NCBI GenBank assembly: GCA_038128265.1
Contig: JAYPJE010000041.1
Span: forward strand, 1 to 38,466
DNA: 38,466 nt
From: Gemmatimonadota bacterium
GTDB taxonomy: Bacteria; Latescibacterota; UBA2968; UBA8231
Reading direction: 5' to 3'
Part shown: positions 22,204 to 31,193 of the stretch, piece after piece
Numbering within the stretch: position 1 is the first letter of the stretch
Layout: every line of letters begins with the position of its first letter
Notes under the pieces: model-generated
What the model saw: the letters and a program-made list of their open reading frames with translations, nothing else
Databases searched by the model: none
Told to the model about the DNA's origin: nothing
Program-made: the position numbers and the translations under genes

Positions 22204-23772
22204 TTAGAAAAAGCGGTTGTGCAGTCGGACTTCTATGCCTTCGAATCCCAATATTTCGTAGCAGGTGCCCGACGTACAGGCCAGTCCCGCGCGCCGCTGG
22301 CCTGCAAACAGGTTTAGATTGTGGTCGGTTCCCAAATCGGCATTGAGGGTTAAACCGCGCCACCACGTGGTACCAGAGGGGTCGGCACCGGTGGCCAATA
22401 TGTCTGTGCTGCGTTCGAGCTGTACGGCGGCGGAAATACCCGAAGATCGGTGCGCAGCCACGTTAAAGTAGAGATTGTTGTAGGGATATTTCGAGGAGCC
22501 GAAACGCCGGTCGACCTTTTGGAACTGCACATCGAACTCGAGCGTATACTGCGGATTAGCGGACCAGGTCCACAGCGTTCCAAGGATGCGGTGTCGCTGG
22601 TCGTCGAGAATCTGGTTGCGATTAAAGTCGACGAAAAACTGGGCCTCGACGAACTCGCCCAGAGGTGAGTTGAGCTGCAGAAAGAGTTCGCGCAGACTTC
22701 TGTCGTCCGCCGTGCCGGGCATCAGTTGGCGCACGGCACGCGTCCAGTTGACGGTGAGAATGTGCCCGCCGTTGGACGTATAGCTCAATTCGCCTTGGAA
22801 ACCGCGTTCGTCGTCGGCCAGCAGGTCGTGCGTAATGCGATTGAGCAGGTAGGCGGCGTGTTCGCGAATCAGCGGGGGTGGGTTATTAATCTGAGTGAGG
22901 GCGAAGTCGCGGTAATCCTTGAACTCGAAGCTGAGTCCCCACGGTCCACTCGCCACGGTCGTAGATAAATAGAGCGCGCGACCTAAATCGCGGTCGAGCG
23001 AGAAAAAGCGCGCGGCTTCGGGATCGCGCTGTGCGTATTCACCATAGACATCGGCATCGATTTTGGGCAGGCCGAGGTCGGCCAGCAAGCGCGCGAGGCG
23101 CAGGCGAACGCTGAGGGCCGCCCCCACTTCGCGCCGATTGCCGACGTCGTAGTGCAGCAGGCTCAAGCCGGTATCCAAGTATCGACGGGGCCGCAGCGTG
23201 AGCGAGCCGCCCTGGATGGTGCCCTGGCGGCGGTCAACTGCCTTGAGCCCGGGCGGCAGGTCGGAATTGACCGGCGTGCCGCGCAGGAGCTGTAGGTGGC
23301 CCCATGGCTTGTTATAGCGCACGTGGAATCCGTCGAGGTCACTGACGATTTGATAGCGTTGCCGCCTGCTGCGCTCTTCGGTAAGGACGCCAGGTAATTC
23401 GAATGCGTGTGCGAGCAGGCCGCTGCCGACAATGGTATAGAAATGGCCCAACGTCGCCTGCAAGGGACCGCGGCGGTAGGATGCGAAGCGCTGGAGAATT
23501 TCGCCGTAGTGGCGGCCGGGTTCGCTCGAGCCAAAGGTTTCAGCGCGGATACCCACGCGGACGTCGTTCAGCGCATAGCCGAAGTTGAGCTGGTAATACA
23601 GAGTGCGAAGGTCGTTCGGTTCTTCGCCGGGCAGGTTGCCGATCTGTAATTCGTTCAGGCTCGAAAGCTGCAATTGAGCCTGAAGAGGAGTGGCTAGCAG
23701 CGCGGCGATAAGGAGCAGAATGGATGAGCTGAGAGAGCGCCTTGGGTGCGTCTCGTTGGATGGGTCGCGCAT
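22204..23772 (-). CDS. DUF6029-like outer-membrane beta-barrel protein with C-terminal CxxGxC motif
   Basis: Signal peptide ending LQA; amphipathic beta-strands; GHFYTIVGSGLL, EFKDY, NNPPPLIREH, ERGFQGEL; C-terminal GLACTSGTC...FEG and terminal Phe. Confidence 0.75.
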   Translation of the reverse strand: MRDPSNETHPRRSLSSSILLLIAALLATPLQAQLQLSSLNELQIGNLPGEEPNDLRTLYYQLNFGYALNDVRVGIRAETFGSSEPGRHYGEILQRFASYRRGPLQATLGHFYTIVGSGLLAHAFELPGVLTEERSRRQRYQIVSDLDGFHVRYNKPWGHLQLLRGTPVNSDLPPGLKAVDRRQGTIQGGSLTLRPRRYLDTGLSLLHYDVGNRREVGAALSVRLRLARLLADLGLPKIDADVYGEYAQRDPEAARFFSLDRDLGRALYLSTTVASGPWGLSFEFKDYRDFALTQINNPPPLIREHAAYLLNRITHDLLADDERGFQGELSYTSNGGHILTVNWTRAVRQLMPGTADDRSLRELFLQLNSPLGEFVEAQFFVDFNRNQILDDQRHRILGTLWTWSANPQYTLEFDVQFQKVDRRFGSSKYPYNNLYFNVAAHRSSGISAAVQLERSTDILATGADPSGTTWWRGLTLNADLGTDHNLNLFAGQRRAGLACTSGTCYEILGFEGIEVRLHNRFF

Positions 23773-23838: not shown

Positions 23839-23896
23839 GTACGCGTATACTTAGGGGACGATCGAACACCGTATGCTGGGAGTTGAATACGCTGCT

Positions 23897-24388
23897 ATGA
23901 GAAGGGTTGCTATCATTGCGCTGTGCTTGTTGATAGGCAGTATCGCCAGAGCGGAGAAAGCACCGCAGCTGGTGCTGGAAAATATAGACGGATCGACGTT
24001 CTCGCTGGCCGAGGCGCTACAAGCGGGGCCGGTCGTCTTTGATTTCTGGGCGACTTGGTGCAAGCCATGTATCAAGGGGCTGCCCAAGATGCAAGCGGTA
24101 GCCAGCGCCTATGAGAAGCGGGGCGTGCAGGTGCTGACGATCAACGTCGATGGTCCGCGCAACCGACCCAAGGTGCGCCCTTTTATGCAGCGCTACAAAA
24201 TCGACCTGCCCGTTTTGCTCGACGATACAAACGAGGTATTGCCATTGTTTCACCTGGCGGGGGTGCCGGCTTCGTTGATCATAGCATCCGATGGAACGGT
24301 GTTTTACAAGCACGAGGGCTATCGGCCTGGAGACGCGGATAAGCTCAGGGAAAAGCTGGACGAATTGTTGATTCTTGAGGAGAAGTAA
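23897..24388 (+). CDS. TlpA/ResA-family thiol-disulfide oxidoreductase, exported
   Basis: Signal peptide ending ARA; DFWATWCKPC; GVP cis-Pro loop; start MRRVA at 23897 (alternative 23873). Confidence 0.93.
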   Translation: MRRVAIIALCLLIGSIARAEKAPQLVLENIDGSTFSLAEALQAGPVVFDFWATWCKPCIKGLPKMQAVASAYEKRGVQVLTINVDGPRNRPKVRPFMQRYKIDLPVLLDDTNEVLPLFHLAGVPASLIIASDGTVFYKHEGYRPGDADKLREKLDELLILEEK

Positions 24389-24391
24389 ACC

Positions 24392-25222
24392 ATGCGCATA
24401 ATACGAGTTATTCTAGCCTCGGTTCTAGTGTCCACGCTGGCTGTTGCCCAGTCGCGGGTGGGCGAACCGGCGGCTGATTTCACGCTGCAGTCGTTGGAAG
24501 GGGATGCGGTTTCCCTAAGCGATTTTAAAGGCCAGGTGGTGTTCATTAACTTCTTTGGCTTTAACTGACCCTTCTGTATCGCGGAGGCCGCGAAAGTAGA
24601 AAATATCTGGCGTGAGTTTGCCTCAGATCACTTCCAAACCATCGGCTTGGACATGTATGATGGTCGGGTCGATCAGGTGCGGATTCAGTTTAAAGAGAAT
24701 ACCGGAACGACGTATCCCCTGCTATTAGAAGCCAGCTCGGTTGGGCCGCTATATGGTCTTGGGCGCGACTTTTATATGGTGATCGACCACCGTGGAATCG
24801 TGCGCTACCGCACCACTGACGGCGTCGGTCTGGGCGCGCGCTTTGATGAGGCCAGCATTCGCGCGGCGATTGCAGAGGCGTTAGACGAACTGGCCCAGGA
24901 GCAAGCGGCCGCTACGGCCGTAGCGGAAGAAGAGGGCGTGCCGGATGCCTTTGGATGGATGATCAACTATCCCAACCCGTTCAACGCCAGCACGGCCATT
25001 CACTTTAACTTGGCACAGGCCAAACCAGTTACGCTGGACATCTACGATGTGCGGGGCCAATGGGTCCGGCGCCTGTGGCATGGACCGCTGGAAGCTGGAG
25101 AGCACCAAATGCACTGGGATGGACGCGATGATCGGGGATTTGCGGCAGCGACCGGTACCTATCTGGGCTGGCTCCGATCCGCCGAAGAGACCCAAGTGCA
25201 GAAAATGCTGCTTCTGCGCTGA
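24392..25222 (+). CDS. Selenocysteine-containing TlpA/peroxiredoxin-like redoxin (UPFC) with signal peptide and C-terminal FlgD-Ig/T9SS-type-A-like domain, 276 aa
   Basis: GAGGAG RBS at 24377-24382; ATG 24392; MRIIRVILASVLVSTLAVAQSRVGEPAADFTLQSLEGDAVSLSDFKGQVVFINFFGFN-(TGA 24566-24568)-PFCIAE continues in frame into the 24647..25222 ORF; C-terminus NYPNPFN...WDGRDDRG...GTY...KMLLLR. Confidence 0.88.
24572..24601 (+). promoter_or_regulatory. Putative bacterial SECIS element
   Basis: Upper stem TCGCGG(24579-84)/CCGCGA(24588-93) with AGG loop beginning 16 nt after the UGA; lower stem TTCTGT(24572-77)/GTAGAA(24596-601). Confidence 0.75.
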
Positions 25223-25273: not shown

Positions 25274-26086
25274 ATGGAAAAGTTGCCCATTAGCGCAGCC
25301 GTACGACGCCTTACACAAGCGGAAGTAGAACAATTTGACGAATGGGGCTATGTGCAGGGCTTGCCGGTGTTCGATGCCGCAGCCGTTCCCCATTTGCAGA
25401 AGCGGCTGCACGAACTCGAAGCAGGCATGCCAGACGACGTGCCGATCAGCTCGGTCAATATGTGGCATAAAGCCAATCGCTGGATTTACGACCTCGCCCG
25501 CACTCCGGCCATCTTGGACTATGTAGAAGATCTGATTGGCCCCGATTTTTTTCAGTGGGGTGGCGGTTTCTTTGTCAAGTATCCCGGCGAGGGTAACTTT
25601 GTTCCCTGGCATCAAGACTCACAGTATTGGCCGCTGTCGCCGCGTAAAACCATTACCGCGTCGCTGGCATTTTACGACGGCACGCGCGAAAACGGCGCCA
25701 TGCAGGTCCTGCGCGGTAGCCATCGTTTAGGGCAGATTCCCCACCACGACGTAGCCGGCGAGGAGTATATGCTGGGCCAGGAGATAGATGCCGATCGAAT
25801 CGACGAGAGCCAGGCCGTTGCCATCGAGCTCAAAGCAGGCGAAATCTCGCTGCACGACGAAGCGCTGGCGCACGGCTCTGGGCCCAATGGCGGCGCCGCG
25901 CCCCGCGCCGTGCTAACCATGCGTTTCAGCCCAACCGAAGTCAAAGCAGATCTCGGCGTGTGGCCTACGTTCGAAAGTTCGATGGCGCGTGGAGTGGATC
26001 GCTATCGGCACAATCCGGAGGCAAAAATCCCCACCGGCGATAACTGTCCCGTGCGCAGTTTTCAGCTCTCTGCCGAATTTGCCTGA
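25274..26086 (+). CDS. Phytanoyl-CoA dioxygenase (PhyH) family Fe(II)/2OG oxygenase
   Basis: QFDEWGY, VPWHQDSQYW, ENGAMQVLRGSH, LKAGEISLHD..LAHGSGPN..R. Confidence 0.92.
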   Translation: MEKLPISAAVRRLTQAEVEQFDEWGYVQGLPVFDAAAVPHLQKRLHELEAGMPDDVPISSVNMWHKANRWIYDLARTPAILDYVEDLIGPDFFQWGGGFFVKYPGEGNFVPWHQDSQYWPLSPRKTITASLAFYDGTRENGAMQVLRGSHRLGQIPHHDVAGEEYMLGQEIDADRIDESQAVAIELKAGEISLHDEALAHGSGPNGGAAPRAVLTMRFSPTEVKADLGVWPTFESSMARGVDRYRHNPEAKIPTGDNCPVRSFQLSAEFA

Positions 26087-26179
26087 GCGGTTTAAGTAGA
26101 CCGGGCTTGGTGCCAATAGGACAGGTTTGATGCCGCGGATTGACGAACGCACGCATTATTTTTCGCCAGAGCGACCTCT

Positions 26180-27211
26180 GTGATGGACGACGCGATTAAC
26201 AGCGCGCGCAGTGAATGGGACGATCGCGTCGATTGGCCTACGGTCACGGTAATCATCGTTACCCGCGATCGCCACGAAGCGGCCGAAAAGGCCGTCGCTT
26301 CGGTTTTGGGGGTCGACTACCCGGCCGAAAAACTGGAAGTCGTCGTGGTCGAAGAGACGGATCAGCCGCAGCCCATTGCCGGTGACCGCATCCGCTATGT
26401 AGCGATTCCGATGCGCAACCTCGGTCTGGGTTTTGCGCGCAACCAGGGCGTCAAGCACGCGGGTGGAGCGGTGTTGGCCTTTACGGACGACGACTGTTTG
26501 GTGCATCGCAACTGGCTGCGCGAATTGGTGGGGCCGCTGTTTGCGGAAGGCGTTGCGGCAACGGCCGGTGCCGTGTTGGTGCCCGCCTGCGGTCCGGTGG
26601 GAGAGTGCGAGAATATTCTCGGTTTTCCGGGAGGGGGCGTGAAGTTTGTAGAGCAGGCGAGAGGCAAGACTGTGCCGCGCGAGACCTTTTCCACCTGCAA
26701 CTGTGCGGTATACCGCTGGGCTGTAGAAGAGGTGGGTGGTTTTCGCGAGTTTAATAGGTCGAGCGGTGAAGACGAACTGCTCAGTCGACAGATATCATCT
26801 CGTCATACGCTGCTGTATACGCCGCATGCCATCGTCTGGCACGAGCCTCGCGACCGCATCGGTAAAGTGTTCCACTGGCTCGTCCGCCGCGGCCACAGTC
26901 GCGTAGAAATGGCTCAGAACGTTTCCAACAAAAGACAGCTCTATGGCAAAATGGTCGTCCAATCGCCCACCGTGCGGTTGGCCCTGGGCACGCTGGCAGG
27001 CGCCGCGGTCGGTGTGCCGCTGGTTGCCATGCCCGTAGCGCTAGTTTTCCTCTACTATGCCAGCGTTCTCCATCGCTATCGCTGGAGCCGGCGCCATCAC
27101 CGCTCGTGGAAGACCTTTCTGCTCTTGCCTTGGGTGAAGGCGGTGATGGATGTAGCTATGGATATCGGCACGGTGGAGAAATTGCTAGCGCGCCAGAAAT
27201 CGAAGGAGTAG
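26180..27211 (+). CDS. Glycosyltransferase family 2
   Basis: PTVTVIIVTRDR, ARNQGV, AFTDDDC (DxD), VGGF, GED; C-terminal TM segments. Confidence 0.92.
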   Translation: MMDDAINSARSEWDDRVDWPTVTVIIVTRDRHEAAEKAVASVLGVDYPAEKLEVVVVEETDQPQPIAGDRIRYVAIPMRNLGLGFARNQGVKHAGGAVLAFTDDDCLVHRNWLRELVGPLFAEGVAATAGAVLVPACGPVGECENILGFPGGGVKFVEQARGKTVPRETFSTCNCAVYRWAVEEVGGFREFNRSSGEDELLSRQISSRHTLLYTPHAIVWHEPRDRIGKVFHWLVRRGHSRVEMAQNVSNKRQLYGKMVVQSPTVRLALGTLAGAAVGVPLVAMPVALVFLYYASVLHRYRWSRRHHRSWKTFLLLPWVKAVMDVAMDIGTVEKLLARQKSKE

Positions 27212-27214
27212 GCC

Positions 27215-28021
27215 GTGATCTCCAGTGAACAGTTCGACCAATACGATCGCGACGGGTATATCATTTTGGAAGATCTGATTAAGCCCGACCAGTTGGACGA
27301 AGTCAGGAAGAGCTACGAGGAGACGATCGCGGCCGCCCTAGCGCTGGGACGAGCGGAGCGCGACGAGAGCACCCAAGCTCTGAAAGGTCATCGGTTTCAG
27401 AATCCGCATCATCCGACCTTGGCTCGCAGGCCTCTGATGGAGGCCATGGGGTCTCCGAATCTAATCGAATTTGCAGACCACATCTGCGGCGGGGATCTGG
27501 CGATGCTGGGTATTGCGGCGTTCGCCATGGATGAGTCATACGACTACGTGCCCCATTGGCATCGAGATTCGTATGCGGCGTGGGGTAAGGATTCGCCCGA
27601 GGAGCTGCGGGTGCGGCATATGGAGAGCATGCCGGCGACTCAGGTGCTGCTGGCCCTGGAAGACGATCCCTCTTTCTGGTTTGTCCCCGGTTCGCACAAC
27701 CGGGCGAATACTGCCCTTGAGGAAGCGCGTTTTGAAGAGGGTCGAACGGGGTGGCAGGAGCTGTTCGAAGGCGCCGTGCAGCTCGGCGTTCGGGCGGGCA
27801 GTGCGGTGCCCTTTGACGCGCGGGGAATCCACCGTGGACTGAAGCGCCCAGGGGTCAGGCGGCGCTCGCTCTTTATCGTGTACGGCACGCCGGAAGAGGC
27901 GAGACATTCGACCATTACTGGATGGGCACGCGAGGCGGACTATGCGGAGGCAGCGTACCTCAACGCACTGCCAGATGGTTTTCGCCGCGCGGTGGAAAAA
28001 ACGATTGCGGCCGTCAGGTAG
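27215..28021 (+). CDS. Phytanoyl-CoA dioxygenase (PhyH) family protein
   Basis: YDRDGYII, WHRD, FVPGSH, AGSAVPFD..GIHRG, RRSL. Confidence 0.88.
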   Translation: MISSEQFDQYDRDGYIILEDLIKPDQLDEVRKSYEETIAAALALGRAERDESTQALKGHRFQNPHHPTLARRPLMEAMGSPNLIEFADHICGGDLAMLGIAAFAMDESYDYVPHWHRDSYAAWGKDSPEELRVRHMESMPATQVLLALEDDPSFWFVPGSHNRANTALEEARFEEGRTGWQELFEGAVQLGVRAGSAVPFDARGIHRGLKRPGVRRRSLFIVYGTPEEARHSTITGWAREADYAEAAYLNALPDGFRRAVEKTIAAVR

Positions 28022-28160: not shown

Positions 28161-31100
28161 TTACTTTCTGTCCCCGCCCGTGACCAACGCCTCCAACGTC
28201 CACTCCAGCGGTATCCGCATGCGGCCTTCGTTTTTGCGGTCAAAGAGCAGGTAGCTGTGCTCTAAGGCGTAGTAGAACAGGTCGCGCGTCAGTTCGACGT
28301 CCTTGCGGCAGTACTCCTCTATTAGATCCATGCGCCCTTCCTTAAACCACTTAAGCGCCATCAGGCCATCGGCGCTCTTGGCCGCGTCGAGCGTAGCCTT
28401 GCCCACCGAGTCGAGGCTGACGCGGTAGCGCAGGCGTTCGTGAATTTCGCGCAGGATGTCGAGCGTGTTGAGCTGGCGAAAGTCGAATGGGCTGTAGCCG
28501 CGCAGCACGGTGTAGTCAAAGCCGATGATATTGAATCCGACGACGAGATCGGCCTTTTTTAGGTGTTCGATTAGTCCATCGACATTTTCTTCAAAGTAGG
28601 AAGTGCACTGCTGCTCGTGGCTGTCCCAGACGATGCCCACCGACATGCCCATCATATGCGCCTTGTTCCAGCCGCCCACTTCGGCCGCCGAGCGCTGGGT
28701 CTCCAAATCAAAGACGACGATGCGTGGGCCGGCATCGGCTTCTGGCGGCGTTTCGCTTTCTTCCCTGTCTTCCCAATCGGCGTAGAGCGGTGGCTCGTCG
28801 TCTTCGATTTCTTCACTGGCCGGTAGCGTGGCCAGATCGAGCTTTTTGCGCCCCGTCAGGATGTTGAGCAGGTGTGTGCAGCCGGCCTTGTCCAGCGGCA
28901 CGTTGCCCGCTCCACAGGTGGGAAAGTGGATGCACGACGGGCAGCCCAACTCGCAGTCGCAGCCTTCGACCATATCGAGCGTCATTTCGAGCAGGCGCTG
29001 CAGCTTGGCAAAGCCCTTTTCCGCCAGGCCGATGCCGCCGGGGTGGTAGTCGTAGACGAAGATCGCGCCCTTTTTGAGCTGCGGGTGCAGCGGGTAACAG
29101 ATGCCGCCCACGTCCGTGCGGTTGCTCAAGGCCAGCAGGGGAAAGAGCGACTTCATGGCGTGTTCGATGGCGTGTATTGAGCCCATGTAGTGGAAGTTGT
29201 TTCGGCGCAGGTCCTTTTTAAAATGCGCGTCCAGCTCGATCCAAAAGCCCACCGTTTCGATATGCTGCACGGGCGATTCGAGCGGATGCTGGCTGAGGAT
29301 GACCTGGTCGCCGACGCGCACTTTCTCGTAGGCGACGACCTGCGAAGAGACTTTCAGGCGGCCTAGCTTGGCCATAAAGCCGTCCATCGGCTTGGAGCGC
29401 AGCTCTTCGAGAATCTCCGTGTCCTTTTCCGACTTGGCGCGCGTGAAGTAGGGCACGTCGACCTCTTTGGCATAGATCTGGCCCTTTTCGGGGTTGCGCT
29501 TGCCAATGAGGTATTGCCGACCGCGATGCAGGTAAACGGCTCCCTCGTAGCACTCGCCGTAGACTTGGCCGCCGCTAACGGTGCCGATCAGGCCGTTGCG
29601 CCCGTCCTCTATGATGTTATACGACTCGCCGATGGTGCGCATATTGACGAGGCGGTGCGGCTGCTTGCGCGCGGCGTACCAGGCATCGCCGTCGGCTCCC
29701 TGTAGCAGCGATCCTTCCATGACCAATTCGTCGACCGCCTCGCGCCAGTTGGGCATTTCGTATTCGGGCTCTTGCGCCGTCAGGGGGAATTCGCGCGCTG
29801 CGCAGACCAGGTGGTTTTTCAGGATGTACTTATTGGTCGGATCGACGACGGCGTCTTCAACTCCGCGCCCAAAAAACTGCACCGGATGCTTCATGAAGTA
29901 CTGGTCGAGCGCATCCTTAGAAGCGATGAGAATAATGAGCGACTCGCGGCCGCCGCGCCCCACGCGTCCGGCGCGCTGCCAGGTGTTGATAATGGAGCCC
30001 GGATAGCCGACCAGCACGCAGACGTCCAGGCCGCCGATGTCGATGCCCAGCTCGAGAGCCGAAGTCGACACGACGCCAAGCAGATCGCCGCTGTTGAGCG
30101 CGTGCTCGATCTGACGGCGCTCCTCGGGCAGATAGCCGGCCCGGTAGGACGAGATTTTTGCGCGCAGGTCGGGGCGGCTCTGCGTCGCCCAGCGGTAGAC
30201 CAGCTCGGTGATGACGCGGGCGCGCGTGAAGACGATCGTGCGATAGTCCTTCTGCACGCTCAGGCGCAGCAGGTTGGCCGCCAGCGTGTTGGGACTCTCC
30301 GGCGGGTTGAGAAAGACAAAGTGGCGTGCTGCTGCCGGCGCACCGTTTTCGGTGATGGCGTGAAACGGCCGGTTGATAAGCGATGCGGCCAGCTCTTGCG
30401 GGTTGCCCATCGTCGCCGAAGAGGTGATGTAGGTCGGATCGGACCCATAGTAGGAACAGATGCGGTTGAGTCGGCGAAACAGGTGCAGCACATGCGTGCC
30501 AAACACGCCGCTGTAGGTGTGCAGCTCGTCGATGACGACAAAGTGCAGGTGCGAAAAGAAATCGGCCCAGGCCTCGTGAAAGGCGAGGATACCCGAATGC
30601 AGCATATCGGGCGTAGTAAAGAGCACGTGCGGTGGGTTGGAGCGAATTTTTTTGCGCTGATAGTCCGATGTATCGCCGTCGTAAATACCGACCGTTAATT
30701 CGGGATCGAGCCCGCTCATCAGACCCTTTATTTCGTCAAACTGATCCTGCTCAAGCGCTTTTAGTGGAAAGATATAAAGCGCCCGCGCTTTTTTATTTTC
30801 CAGCAGCGTGCTCAGTACGGGCACGTTGTAGACCATGGTCTTACCGGAGGCCGTCGGCGTCGCGACGGCCACGTGCTGGCCCTGCAGCACCTTTTCAATG
30901 CCTTCGGCCTGGTGCGTGTAGAGCGCGGGTATATCGGCGACCCGGAGGATGTCCGGTACGGATGCCGGCAGGTGCGATAGGTCGTGTACGAGCTTCTCTG
31001 GGCGGGCGGCAATGGTCTCGTGGTGGATCAGGTAATTGCCCAGCACGCGCCGCTTGAGATAGGCCAGGTACTCGAGGATGGATTCAGACGAGGAGGGTTC

Positions 31101-31193
31101 GGGGGCATAGCCTGCATCGGGGGTGGCATCGCGGATCACGGCGCAGTCCTGTCGGTCGAATAGGCTGGGGCAGATGGTAGAAGTGTAGCGCAT
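28161..31193 (-). CDS. MrfA/SftH-type DEAD/DEAH helicase with DUF1998 Zn domain fused to C-terminal RNase H-like DEDD exonuclease
   Basis: LYTHQ, TPTASGKT, DELH, SAT, TSALELGIDIG, QRAGRVGR; DUF1998 CDCELGCPSC; C-terminal FDLETQ...GFNIIGFD...YCRKDV; start may be GTG 31139. Confidence 0.9.
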   Translation of the reverse strand: MRYTSTICPSLFDRQDCAVIRDATPDAGYAPEPSSSESILEYLAYLKRRVLGNYLIHHETIAARPEKLVHDLSHLPASVPDILRVADIPALYTHQAEGIEKVLQGQHVAVATPTASGKTMVYNVPVLSTLLENKKARALYIFPLKALEQDQFDEIKGLMSGLDPELTVGIYDGDTSDYQRKKIRSNPPHVLFTTPDMLHSGILAFHEAWADFFSHLHFVVIDELHTYSGVFGTHVLHLFRRLNRICSYYGSDPTYITSSATMGNPQELAASLINRPFHAITENGAPAAARHFVFLNPPESPNTLAANLLRLSVQKDYRTIVFTRARVITELVYRWATQSRPDLRAKISSYRAGYLPEERRQIEHALNSGDLLGVVSTSALELGIDIGGLDVCVLVGYPGSIINTWQRAGRVGRGGRESLIILIASKDALDQYFMKHPVQFFGRGVEDAVVDPTNKYILKNHLVCAAREFPLTAQEPEYEMPNWREAVDELVMEGSLLQGADGDAWYAARKQPHRLVNMRTIGESYNIIEDGRNGLIGTVSGGQVYGECYEGAVYLHRGRQYLIGKRNPEKGQIYAKEVDVPYFTRAKSEKDTEILEELRSKPMDGFMAKLGRLKVSSQVVAYEKVRVGDQVILSQHPLESPVQHIETVGFWIELDAHFKKDLRRNNFHYMGSIHAIEHAMKSLFPLLALSNRTDVGGICYPLHPQLKKGAIFVYDYHPGGIGLAEKGFAKLQRLLEMTLDMVEGCDCELGCPSCIHFPTCGAGNVPLDKAGCTHLLNILTGRKKLDLATLPASEEIEDDEPPLYADWEDREESETPPEADAGPRIVVFDLETQRSAAEVGGWNKAHMMGMSVGIVWDSHEQQCTSYFEENVDGLIEHLKKADLVVGFNIIGFDYTVLRGYSPFDFRQLNTLDILREIHERLRYRVSLDSVGKATLDAAKSADGLMALKWFKEGRMDLIEEYCRKDVELTRDLFYYALEHSYLLFDRKNEGRMRIPLEWTLEALVTGGDRK

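Follow-up and report, generated by a model that had tools for sequence, protein, structure and literature searches.

Background

Thioredoxin-fold selenoproteins with selenocysteine (Sec, U) in a UxxC motif make up well-established predicted families. Table 1 of PMC13188914 lists a Prx-like thiol:disulfide oxidoreductase as well as a thiol-disulfide isomerase-like and a redoxin-family selenoprotein (PF00578, cd02966 and PF08534), and a Prx-like family in which UXXC takes the place of TXXU, represented by 22 Sec forms and 4 Cys forms, is described for Sargasso Sea data in the available text of PMC1088965. The gene described here lies on the forward strand of a 38,466-nucleotide contig (JAYPJE010000041.1 of assembly GCA_038128265.1; this whole stretch of DNA is called the window below) from a bacterium deposited as Gemmatimonadota, and is predicted to encode an exported redoxin with a U-P-F-C active site. 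It resembles the listed UxxC families in that its product has a thioredoxin fold matched by PF00578 and PF08534, and would carry Sec in place of the first Cys of the motif. The excess of Sec over Cys in the Sargasso Sea family (22:4, as far as the available text goes) is likewise comparable to that found here, where 75 of 76 copies have TGA at this site. In contrast to the listed families, the present redoxin family carries a type IX secretion system (T9SS) sorting domain or other surface modules; as the families were compared by description only, it may coincide with one of them. In the available text of PMC13188914 the terms 'secret', 'periplasm' and 'signal peptide' do not occur.

Two other described systems are close to this gene. 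The ResA/TlpA/CcmG proteins, including B. subtilis ResA (1st9, 1su9) and a Geobacter protein (3kcm), are the best matches in both sequence and fold. They are exported, as predicted for the present protein, and their helix 1 likewise begins at a CxxC-type motif. The redoxin described here differs from them by Sec for the first Cys, by the absence of a Pro opposite the active site, by an extra helical linker, and by its T9SS tail. The second is HBP35 of Porphyromonas gingivalis, a T9SS cargo protein which, according to the available parts of PMC2907840 and PMC3120885, combines a thioredoxin-like domain and motif with a conserved C-terminal domain for Por/type IX secretion and surface attachment. 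The redox residues of HBP35 are Cys, and the protein is linked to the use of haem by an anaerobe that lives with a host, whereas the present protein would use Sec and is encoded beside TlpA-like and DUF6029 genes; the likeness between the two is one of description.

Since UxxC redoxin selenoproteins are known, this gene is a new, previously unannotated addition to that group, and is distinguished by near-exclusive use of Sec, a T9SS tail and a conserved three-gene module. No earlier selenoprotein with a T9SS sorting signal was found in searches of the literature on selenocysteine and type IX secretion, or in that on selenoproteins of Latescibacteria and Gemmatimonad groups. We propose, with a probability of about 0.88 for the account as a whole, that the gene encodes a secreted, T9SS-sorted selenoprotein oxidoreductase of the ResA/TlpA type in which U59 is the attacking residue.

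Results and Discussion

A conserved in-frame TGA

The gene is a single 276-codon frame from an ATG to a closing TGA (Table 1), in which a TGA at codon 59 is the only internal stop; no other stop is found before the terminal TGA at 25220-25222, and the product has 276 residues if the internal TGA is read through. The TAA of the upstream gene ends 3 nucleotides (nt) before the ATG, and a GAGGAG sequence at 24377-24382, nine bases before the ATG, agrees with the ribosome-binding site noted in a first-pass annotation of this DNA. Translation of the frame also bore out what that annotation had read from the sequence: a frame of 276 codons with no other lesions up to 25222, closed by a TGA, and an internal TGA exactly at the first Cys position of the active-site motif (FFGFN-TGA-PFC, compared with FWATWCKPC in the gene directly upstream). 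It had further stated that the gene is missed by ORF calling, and a plain listing of open reading frames (ORFs) indeed breaks it into pieces of 58 residues (24392-24568) and 191 residues (24647-25222). The two pieces must belong to one domain, as the internal TGA falls within the Pfam AhpC-TSA match (residues 23-139, E 1.3e-15); the Pfam Redoxin match crosses the TGA in the same way.

A six-frame search of 41 related genomes with the redoxin protein showed that every match covering the redoxin N-terminus has exactly one internal TGA, with one exception. Twenty sequences covering this N-terminus, cut from loci L023-L040 and sharing 37-83% identity, were aligned. The TGA falls in a single column of the alignment (G-[FY]-x-U-x-x-C) in 19 of the 20 homologues, and the remaining one has TGC (Cys) at this position, being a tandem paralogue in genome G026. 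Full-length orthologues with the same single TGA are found at 82% and 76% identity. The TGA column aligns with the first Cys of CxxC in the solved TlpA-like proteins 3kcm and 2ls5. A survey of 168 genomes of the phylum, with matches counted at E<=1e-25, gave 76 matches in 54 genomes, of which 75 have one TGA (one of these also has a TAG) and a single one has none. These matches were found in 51 of the 75 genomes of one family (f1) and in two of the three genomes of another (f3), while the remaining 12 families of the phylum that were searched gave none at this threshold. The survey thereby adds a clade-restricted UxxC selenoprotein subfamily in which 75 of 76 copies would use Sec. Four paralogues occur in the closed genome G015, and one of these (C1:4136420-4137229) has a TAG besides the TGA and is possibly decaying.

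The ratio of non-synonymous to synonymous substitution (dN/dS) was calculated against the two closest congeners, G001 and G002 respectively, at a proportion of synonymous differences (pS) of 0.38-0.63. Over codons 1-58, a segment that takes in the putative signal peptide, it amounts to 0.22 and 0.13, and over codons 60-170 to 0.076 and 0.074. The low values on both sides of the TGA indicate that both halves are maintained as protein in one frame, which excludes a pseudogene, two separate genes, or an assembly error. Relatives with Cys only, and decay of the copy in the window, were looked for as well and were not seen.

All 15 close relatives in a collection of 5.8 billion proteins are fragments of 153-214 residues that contain the post-TGA part only, and the search of this collection brought up no full-length form above 38% identity. 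This implies that gene callers truncate the whole family, such that its redox domain is invisible to annotation in public protein sets. A single-protein scan gave four close relatives. The nearest public ones are from metagenome-assembled genomes titled Gemmatimonadota, and one database fragment with 56% identity is titled Candidatus Latescibacteria.

The source genome encodes selA (553.4 bits), selB (356.2 bits) and selD (354.6 bits), each above the curated NCBIfam cut-off. The selD gene (C18:70299-71222, minus strand) itself carries a Sec-TGA, in the motif CG-U-AAK. The conservation of the TGA, the low dN/dS and the presence of selA, selB and selD all support the central proposal of the first-pass annotation, namely that UGA is recoded as Sec in an exported UxxC redoxin. 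Judged from these sequence data, the gene is very probably a genuine selenoprotein gene with Sec at codon 59.

Predicted export and surface sorting

The C-terminal part of the protein (residues 193-272 of 276) matches NCBIfam TIGR04183, the T9SS type A sorting domain, with 28 bits at a cut-off of 23. The first-pass annotation had not noticed this sorting domain. The same C-terminal domain ends 77 other matches in the source genome, which also encodes the T9SS components PorU (656.9 bits, cut-off 420) and SprA (592.8 bits, cut-off 200).

The domain composition of the family is variable downstream of the redoxin domain. In two congeners, G004 (L026) and G006 (L027:1501-3417), the same syntenic site is occupied by a fusion protein of 639 residues, in which the Sec-redoxin is followed by a PF00144 domain (216.6 bits), i.e. 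a serine-hydrolase domain of the beta-lactamase family, and then by the same tail. The members from family f3 (L039:88-1413, L039:1471-2151 and L040:1447-2781, from genomes G026 and G030) have no T9SS tail, and the redoxin is followed by Ig-like domains of the ASH/HYDIN type and by EF-hand/dockerin-like repeats. Genome G026 has a tandem pair with one Cys copy and one Sec copy. Since other lineages swap the tail for other extracytoplasmic modules, all variants can be read as surface-directed, and all are predicted to be built as exported proteins destined for the cell surface.

The sorting domain does not score equally well in all models. In the same region Pfam FlgD_ig gives the higher score (47.5 bits), and Pfam Por_Secre_tail, with 22.5 bits, stays under its cut-off of 27. 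This would suit a genuine selenoprotein that acts in the periplasm, either because the beta-sandwich has a structural or binding role, or because the protein acts before its export; it could then be a TlpA-like reductase, e.g. in the maturation of cytochromes or copper proteins, recycled by CcdA/DsbD. Reducing power is available in the periplasm, and a DsbD_TM domain protein and an adjoining Cys-type TlpA are encoded. Such a periplasmic role is the alternative that survives best, yet we consider it unlikely, as TIGR04183 scores above its cut-off, the tail is shared with so many other proteins of a genome that has PorU and SprA, and the lineages without this tail have replaced it by other surface modules rather than lost it. 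Moreover, a T9SS cargo with a thioredoxin motif has a precedent in HBP35 of P. gingivalis, as described in the available parts of PMC2907840 and PMC3120885.

Fold and active site of the redoxin domain

On the read-through protein, Pfam AhpC-TSA scores 57.9 bits and Pfam Redoxin 44 bits, both above cut-off. An AlphaFold2 (AF2) model built from a 19-sequence alignment has a mean confidence score (pLDDT) of 84.8, and values of mostly 91-96 in the redoxin domain. In this model U59 is placed directly before a helix of residues 60-75, a long helix spans residues 153-180, and residues 188-274 form a seven-stranded beta-sandwich (strand pLDDT 87-95); the N-terminal region is disordered or helical (pLDDT 50-54). 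The top structural matches found with Foldseek are ResA structures, with template-modelling (TM) scores of 0.81-0.88, normalised to the target, and root-mean-square deviations of 1.8-2.2 Å. Other TlpA-like proteins come next, and peroxiredoxins are placed lower. A profile search of the sequences in the Protein Data Bank (PDB) gave 3kcm as the best match (E 1e-19), followed by 2ls5 and then by ResA. The columns of Cys62 and Gly56 are invariant in the homologue alignment. As modelled and matched, the redoxin domain is ResA/TlpA-like, yet not a typical TlpA.

Two observations on the domain itself weigh against the proposed account. Firstly, the curated NCBIfam cut-offs are not reached for ResA (49.6 bits, cut-off 170), TlpA (26.9 bits, cut-off 230) or DsbE (24.6 bits, cut-off 123). 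Secondly, the residue opposite the Pro of GVPET in the alignment with 3kcm is D126, and Pro is absent from this column in all 19 family members; the loop that holds this Pro, opposite the active site, is presumably the cis-Pro loop. The missing Pro and the ResA score far under its cut-off suggest that the chemistry may differ from that of ResA. The Sec-specific redoxin models in NCBIfam likewise score far under their cut-offs on the redoxin protein.

The Pro opposite the active site is missing in peroxiredoxins as well, and R125 lies beside that position. In addition, AhpC/TSA is the best Pfam match, peroxiredoxins and Bcp are among the fold matches, and Sec is described to resist over-oxidation (PMC13188914, available text). 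A selenoprotein that acts as a peroxiredoxin-like peroxidase, detoxifying peroxides at the cell surface, would be in line with these properties. However, the peroxiredoxin motif PxxxTxxC/U, as given in PMC13188914, is absent from the redoxin protein, which has FFGFN-U, with the invariant Gly56 at position -3 and no Thr. Because the T of this motif is replaced by an invariant Gly, the family is not considered to be a peroxiredoxin family. R125 is not conserved, as its column contains R, K, Q, N, T and others. Furthermore, the ResA/TlpA structures outrank all peroxiredoxins, and the spacing of the UxxC motif is thioredoxin-like. A peroxidase is therefore improbable, even somewhat more so than a purely periplasmic role, and a thiol-disulfide oxidoreductase of the ResA/TlpA type is preferred.

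Assembly quality and genetic code

The source assembly is a draft metagenome-assembled genome of 102 contigs and 4.29 Mb, with a completeness of 84.5% and a contamination of 5.15%. An assembly of this quality could contain a sequencing or assembly error by which a Cys codon is misread as TGA, or a pseudogene in which the Cys codon was mutated, and the G015 paralogue with a TAG besides its TGA suggests that some copies may decay. Either explanation is nevertheless very improbable, as the 54 genomes that share this TGA were assembled independently, the dN/dS after the TGA is as low as 0.07-0.08, and the frame has no other lesions. The least likely explanation of all is that the organism reads TGA throughout as Trp or Gly, in the manner of NCBI tables 4 or 25, and not as Sec: reading TGA as sense opens the frame, which is nothing specific, whereas TGA terminates the redoxin gene itself and 9 of the 27 long ORFs in the window, no internal TGA is found in the open frames of selA (477 residues), selB (648 residues), PorU (1250 residues) and SprA (2163 residues), and where the TGA column holds no TGA, namely in a single homologue and in the relatives of solved structure, it holds Cys.

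The SECIS-like hairpin and the tRNA for selenocysteine

A hairpin that resembles a selenocysteine insertion sequence (SECIS) is located 16 nt downstream of the UGA. It has an upper stem of 6 bp (UCGCGG/CCGCGA, 24579-24584 with 24588-24593), an apical AGG loop (24585-24587) with G at position 2, and a lower stem (24572-24576 with 24597-24601), and the energy of the centroid structure is -11.4 kcal/mol. Published criteria for bacterial SECIS elements (bSECIS), as given in the legend to Fig. 2 of PMC13188914, are a loop of 3-9 nt, a stem of 4-16 bp, a G in the first two loop positions, a distance of 16-37 nt from the UGA, and a minimum free energy (MFE) of <= -7.5 kcal/mol. The redoxin hairpin lies within all of these limits, whose specificity is weak as G+C-rich genes like these often contain hairpins of this kind.

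When 60-nt regions are folded to the MFE structure, 17 of the 19 Sec homologues show the same hairpin. Distant homologues form it from other sequences (CUCUCG...CGAGAG, GGCGG...CCGCC, GGACG...CGUCC), and the encoded peptides differ there too; three distant sequences form the hairpin in a register that is shifted by 1-2 nt. Across the aligned sequences, pairing in the upper helix amounts to 87.7%, and two of its pairs are changed on both sides; pairing drops to 35-49% when the partner strand is slid. The selD gene of the same genome provides a second case of an in-frame UGA followed by a hairpin, and the stem starts at the same offset as in the redoxin gene, i.e. 13 nt after the U of UGA. It differs in that it belongs to another protein family, and in that its hairpin has a 7-bp stem and an apical GGUC loop instead of AGG.

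Various results on the hairpin and on the Sec machinery argue against Sec insertion at this site, or reduce the weight of the evidence for it. The MFE fold favours another structure in 2 of the 19 Sec homologues, and RNAalifold, applied to the alignment of the 19 SECIS regions, missed the hairpin and gave an unrelated, very weak consensus of -1.22 kcal/mol. Elsewhere in each of these genes, 0-40% of 28-nt windows (median about 14%) reach an equal or better folding energy. At the same offset, the median hairpin energy is -8.9 kcal/mol in Sec genes versus -8.0 kcal/mol in the Cys-type neighbour genes, a modest difference (one-sided Mann-Whitney p 0.008, for sequences that are non-independent), and the Cys-type TlpA gene in the window itself reaches -11.4 kcal/mol at this offset. 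Also, the Cys paralogue in G026 has retained a hairpin like that of the Sec copy. The hairpin is thus compatible with a SECIS element and conserved in position, and its stability is not exceptional. As the energy difference is only modest, the case for Sec rests mainly on the conservation of the TGA and on the Sec machinery.

With respect to this machinery, the first-pass annotation had suggested a search for selA, selB, selC and selD. Three of these genes are present as described above, and the fourth, selC, encoding tRNA-Sec, was not found in the 84.5%-complete source assembly, where the best Rfam score is 43.2 (cut-off 47) at a site that is a tRNA-Ser gene. Only 19 tRNA genes were identified with Aragorn in the whole 4.29-Mb assembly, and hence the absence of tRNA-Sec, or of any other tRNA, says little here. 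Among five relatives tested, four have a tRNA-Sec above cut-off (64-72 bits), with congeners G002 and G006 at 64.2 bits; in congener G001, which is 93% complete, no tRNA-Sec scores above cut-off. The selA gene is found above cut-off in all 18 of the genomes carrying the TGA redoxin among the 41 relatives. However, it occurs in 37 of these 41 genomes, and its co-occurrence with the redoxin gene therefore discriminates little.

The redoxin gene cluster and a proposed mechanism

A Cys-type TlpA-like gene adjoins the Sec redoxin gene in 11 of 17 loci from relatives, and in 13 of these 17 loci the 1.5-kb flanks contain a DUF6029 gene, in varying orientation. The DUF6029 protein (Pfam DUF6029, 50.7 bits) starts with a signal peptide, and its last residues are NRFF; NCBIfam contains no family for it. 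Wzi-like outer-membrane barrels resemble DUF6029 by HHpred, as reported in the available text of PMC9603273. The protein has only two cysteines, C499 and C504, in the motif GLACTxGxCYE[VI]LGFEG, and these are kept in all seven relatives that reach the C-terminus. The two redoxins could have this Cys pair as a client. A membrane domain of the DsbD/CcdA type (DsbD_TM) is encoded elsewhere in the genome.

We propose the following mechanism. The hairpin 16 nt past the UGA would recruit SelB with Sec-tRNA(Sec), and Sec would be inserted instead of termination, while translation would stop at the second TGA, at 25220, which has no such hairpin context. The preprotein would then be exported through the Sec translocation pathway by means of its N-terminal signal peptide, and its C-terminal type A sorting domain would hand it over to the T9SS, by which the redoxin domain would arrive on or beyond the outer membrane. 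There, the U59 selenolate may attack a substrate disulfide or another oxidised sulfur species, and Cys62 would resolve the mixed Se-S bond, resulting in an internal selenylsulfide. Electrons may be delivered by a CcdA/DsbD-type membrane protein to the neighbouring periplasmic Cys-type TlpA-like redoxin, which is the best candidate for supplying or relaying reducing power and may pass them on to the Sec redoxin, possibly before its export. The redoxin probably has the conserved DUF6029 barrel as its partner or client. A difficulty for this mechanism is that we are not aware of any route by which a redoxin located beyond the outer membrane would be recycled.

More tentatively, the three genes may form an envelope redox module of Gemmatimonadota-like bacteria, in which a periplasmic Cys-type TlpA-like protein, a DUF6029 barrel with its CxxxxC pair, and a near-obligate Sec redoxin brought to the surface by the T9SS move thiol-disulfide chemistry across, or carry it out at, the outer membrane. 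Sec could have been chosen here as a reactive residue that resists irreversible oxidation outside the cell; we regard this extended proposal as speculative. If the protein is indeed surface-exposed, the family would provide a tractable system to study what favours Sec over Cys under oxidising conditions outside the cell, and would offer a first functional handle on DUF6029 barrels.

Features of the locus and other genes

The features of the Sec redoxin gene and of its two conserved neighbours are summarized in Table 1.

Table 1. Coordinates in the window of the Sec redoxin gene, its predicted elements and the adjoining genes
Feature	Position	Strand	Basis
Predicted complete selenoprotein coding sequence, 276 residues including Sec59, plus terminal TGA	24392..25222	+	Orthologues with the same single TGA; dN/dS <0.25 on both sides
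Putative signal peptide, residues 1-19 (MRIIR, hydrophobic run, AVA before QS)	24392..24448	+	Reading by eye; homologue N-termini show a like pattern
Thioredoxin-fold redoxin domain, ResA/TlpA-like, residues 23-139 (fold reaches about residue 150)	24458..24808	+	Pfam, AF2, Foldseek
Predicted Sec codon UGA, residue 59, first position of U-P-F-C	24566..24568	+	Homologue column; alignment with TlpA-like proteins
SECIS-like hairpin	24572..24601	+	Centroid structure; kept in homologues
Putative resolving Cys62, codon TGT	24575..24577	+	Invariant column in homologue alignment
Predicted C-terminal T9SS type A sorting domain, residues 193-272, beta-sandwich; protein ends in KMLLLR	24968..25207	+	TIGR04183, FlgD_ig, AF2
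Cys-type TlpA/ResA-like redoxin gene (WCKPC) with signal peptide, likely operon partner	23873..24388	+	Domain matches; adjacency in relatives
DUF6029 gene in divergent orientation; product a predicted beta-barrel of the outer membrane with a conserved CxxxxC pair close to its C-terminus	22204..23772	-	Pfam, synteny

A second redoxin match with one TGA in the source genome (C21:27197-27667) was rejected, as it is an ordinary TlpA-like gene with a WCGPC motif in which the TGA is a real stop.

Downstream of the Sec redoxin gene, at 25274-28021 on the plus strand, two genes for PhyH-family dioxygenases flank a gene for a family-2 glycosyltransferase; this adjacency is not kept in most relatives. 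Further downstream (28161-31193, minus strand) the window encodes a DEAD/DEAH helicase of 1010 residues, with an MrfA Zn-binding domain and a weak RNase H-like region at its C-terminus.

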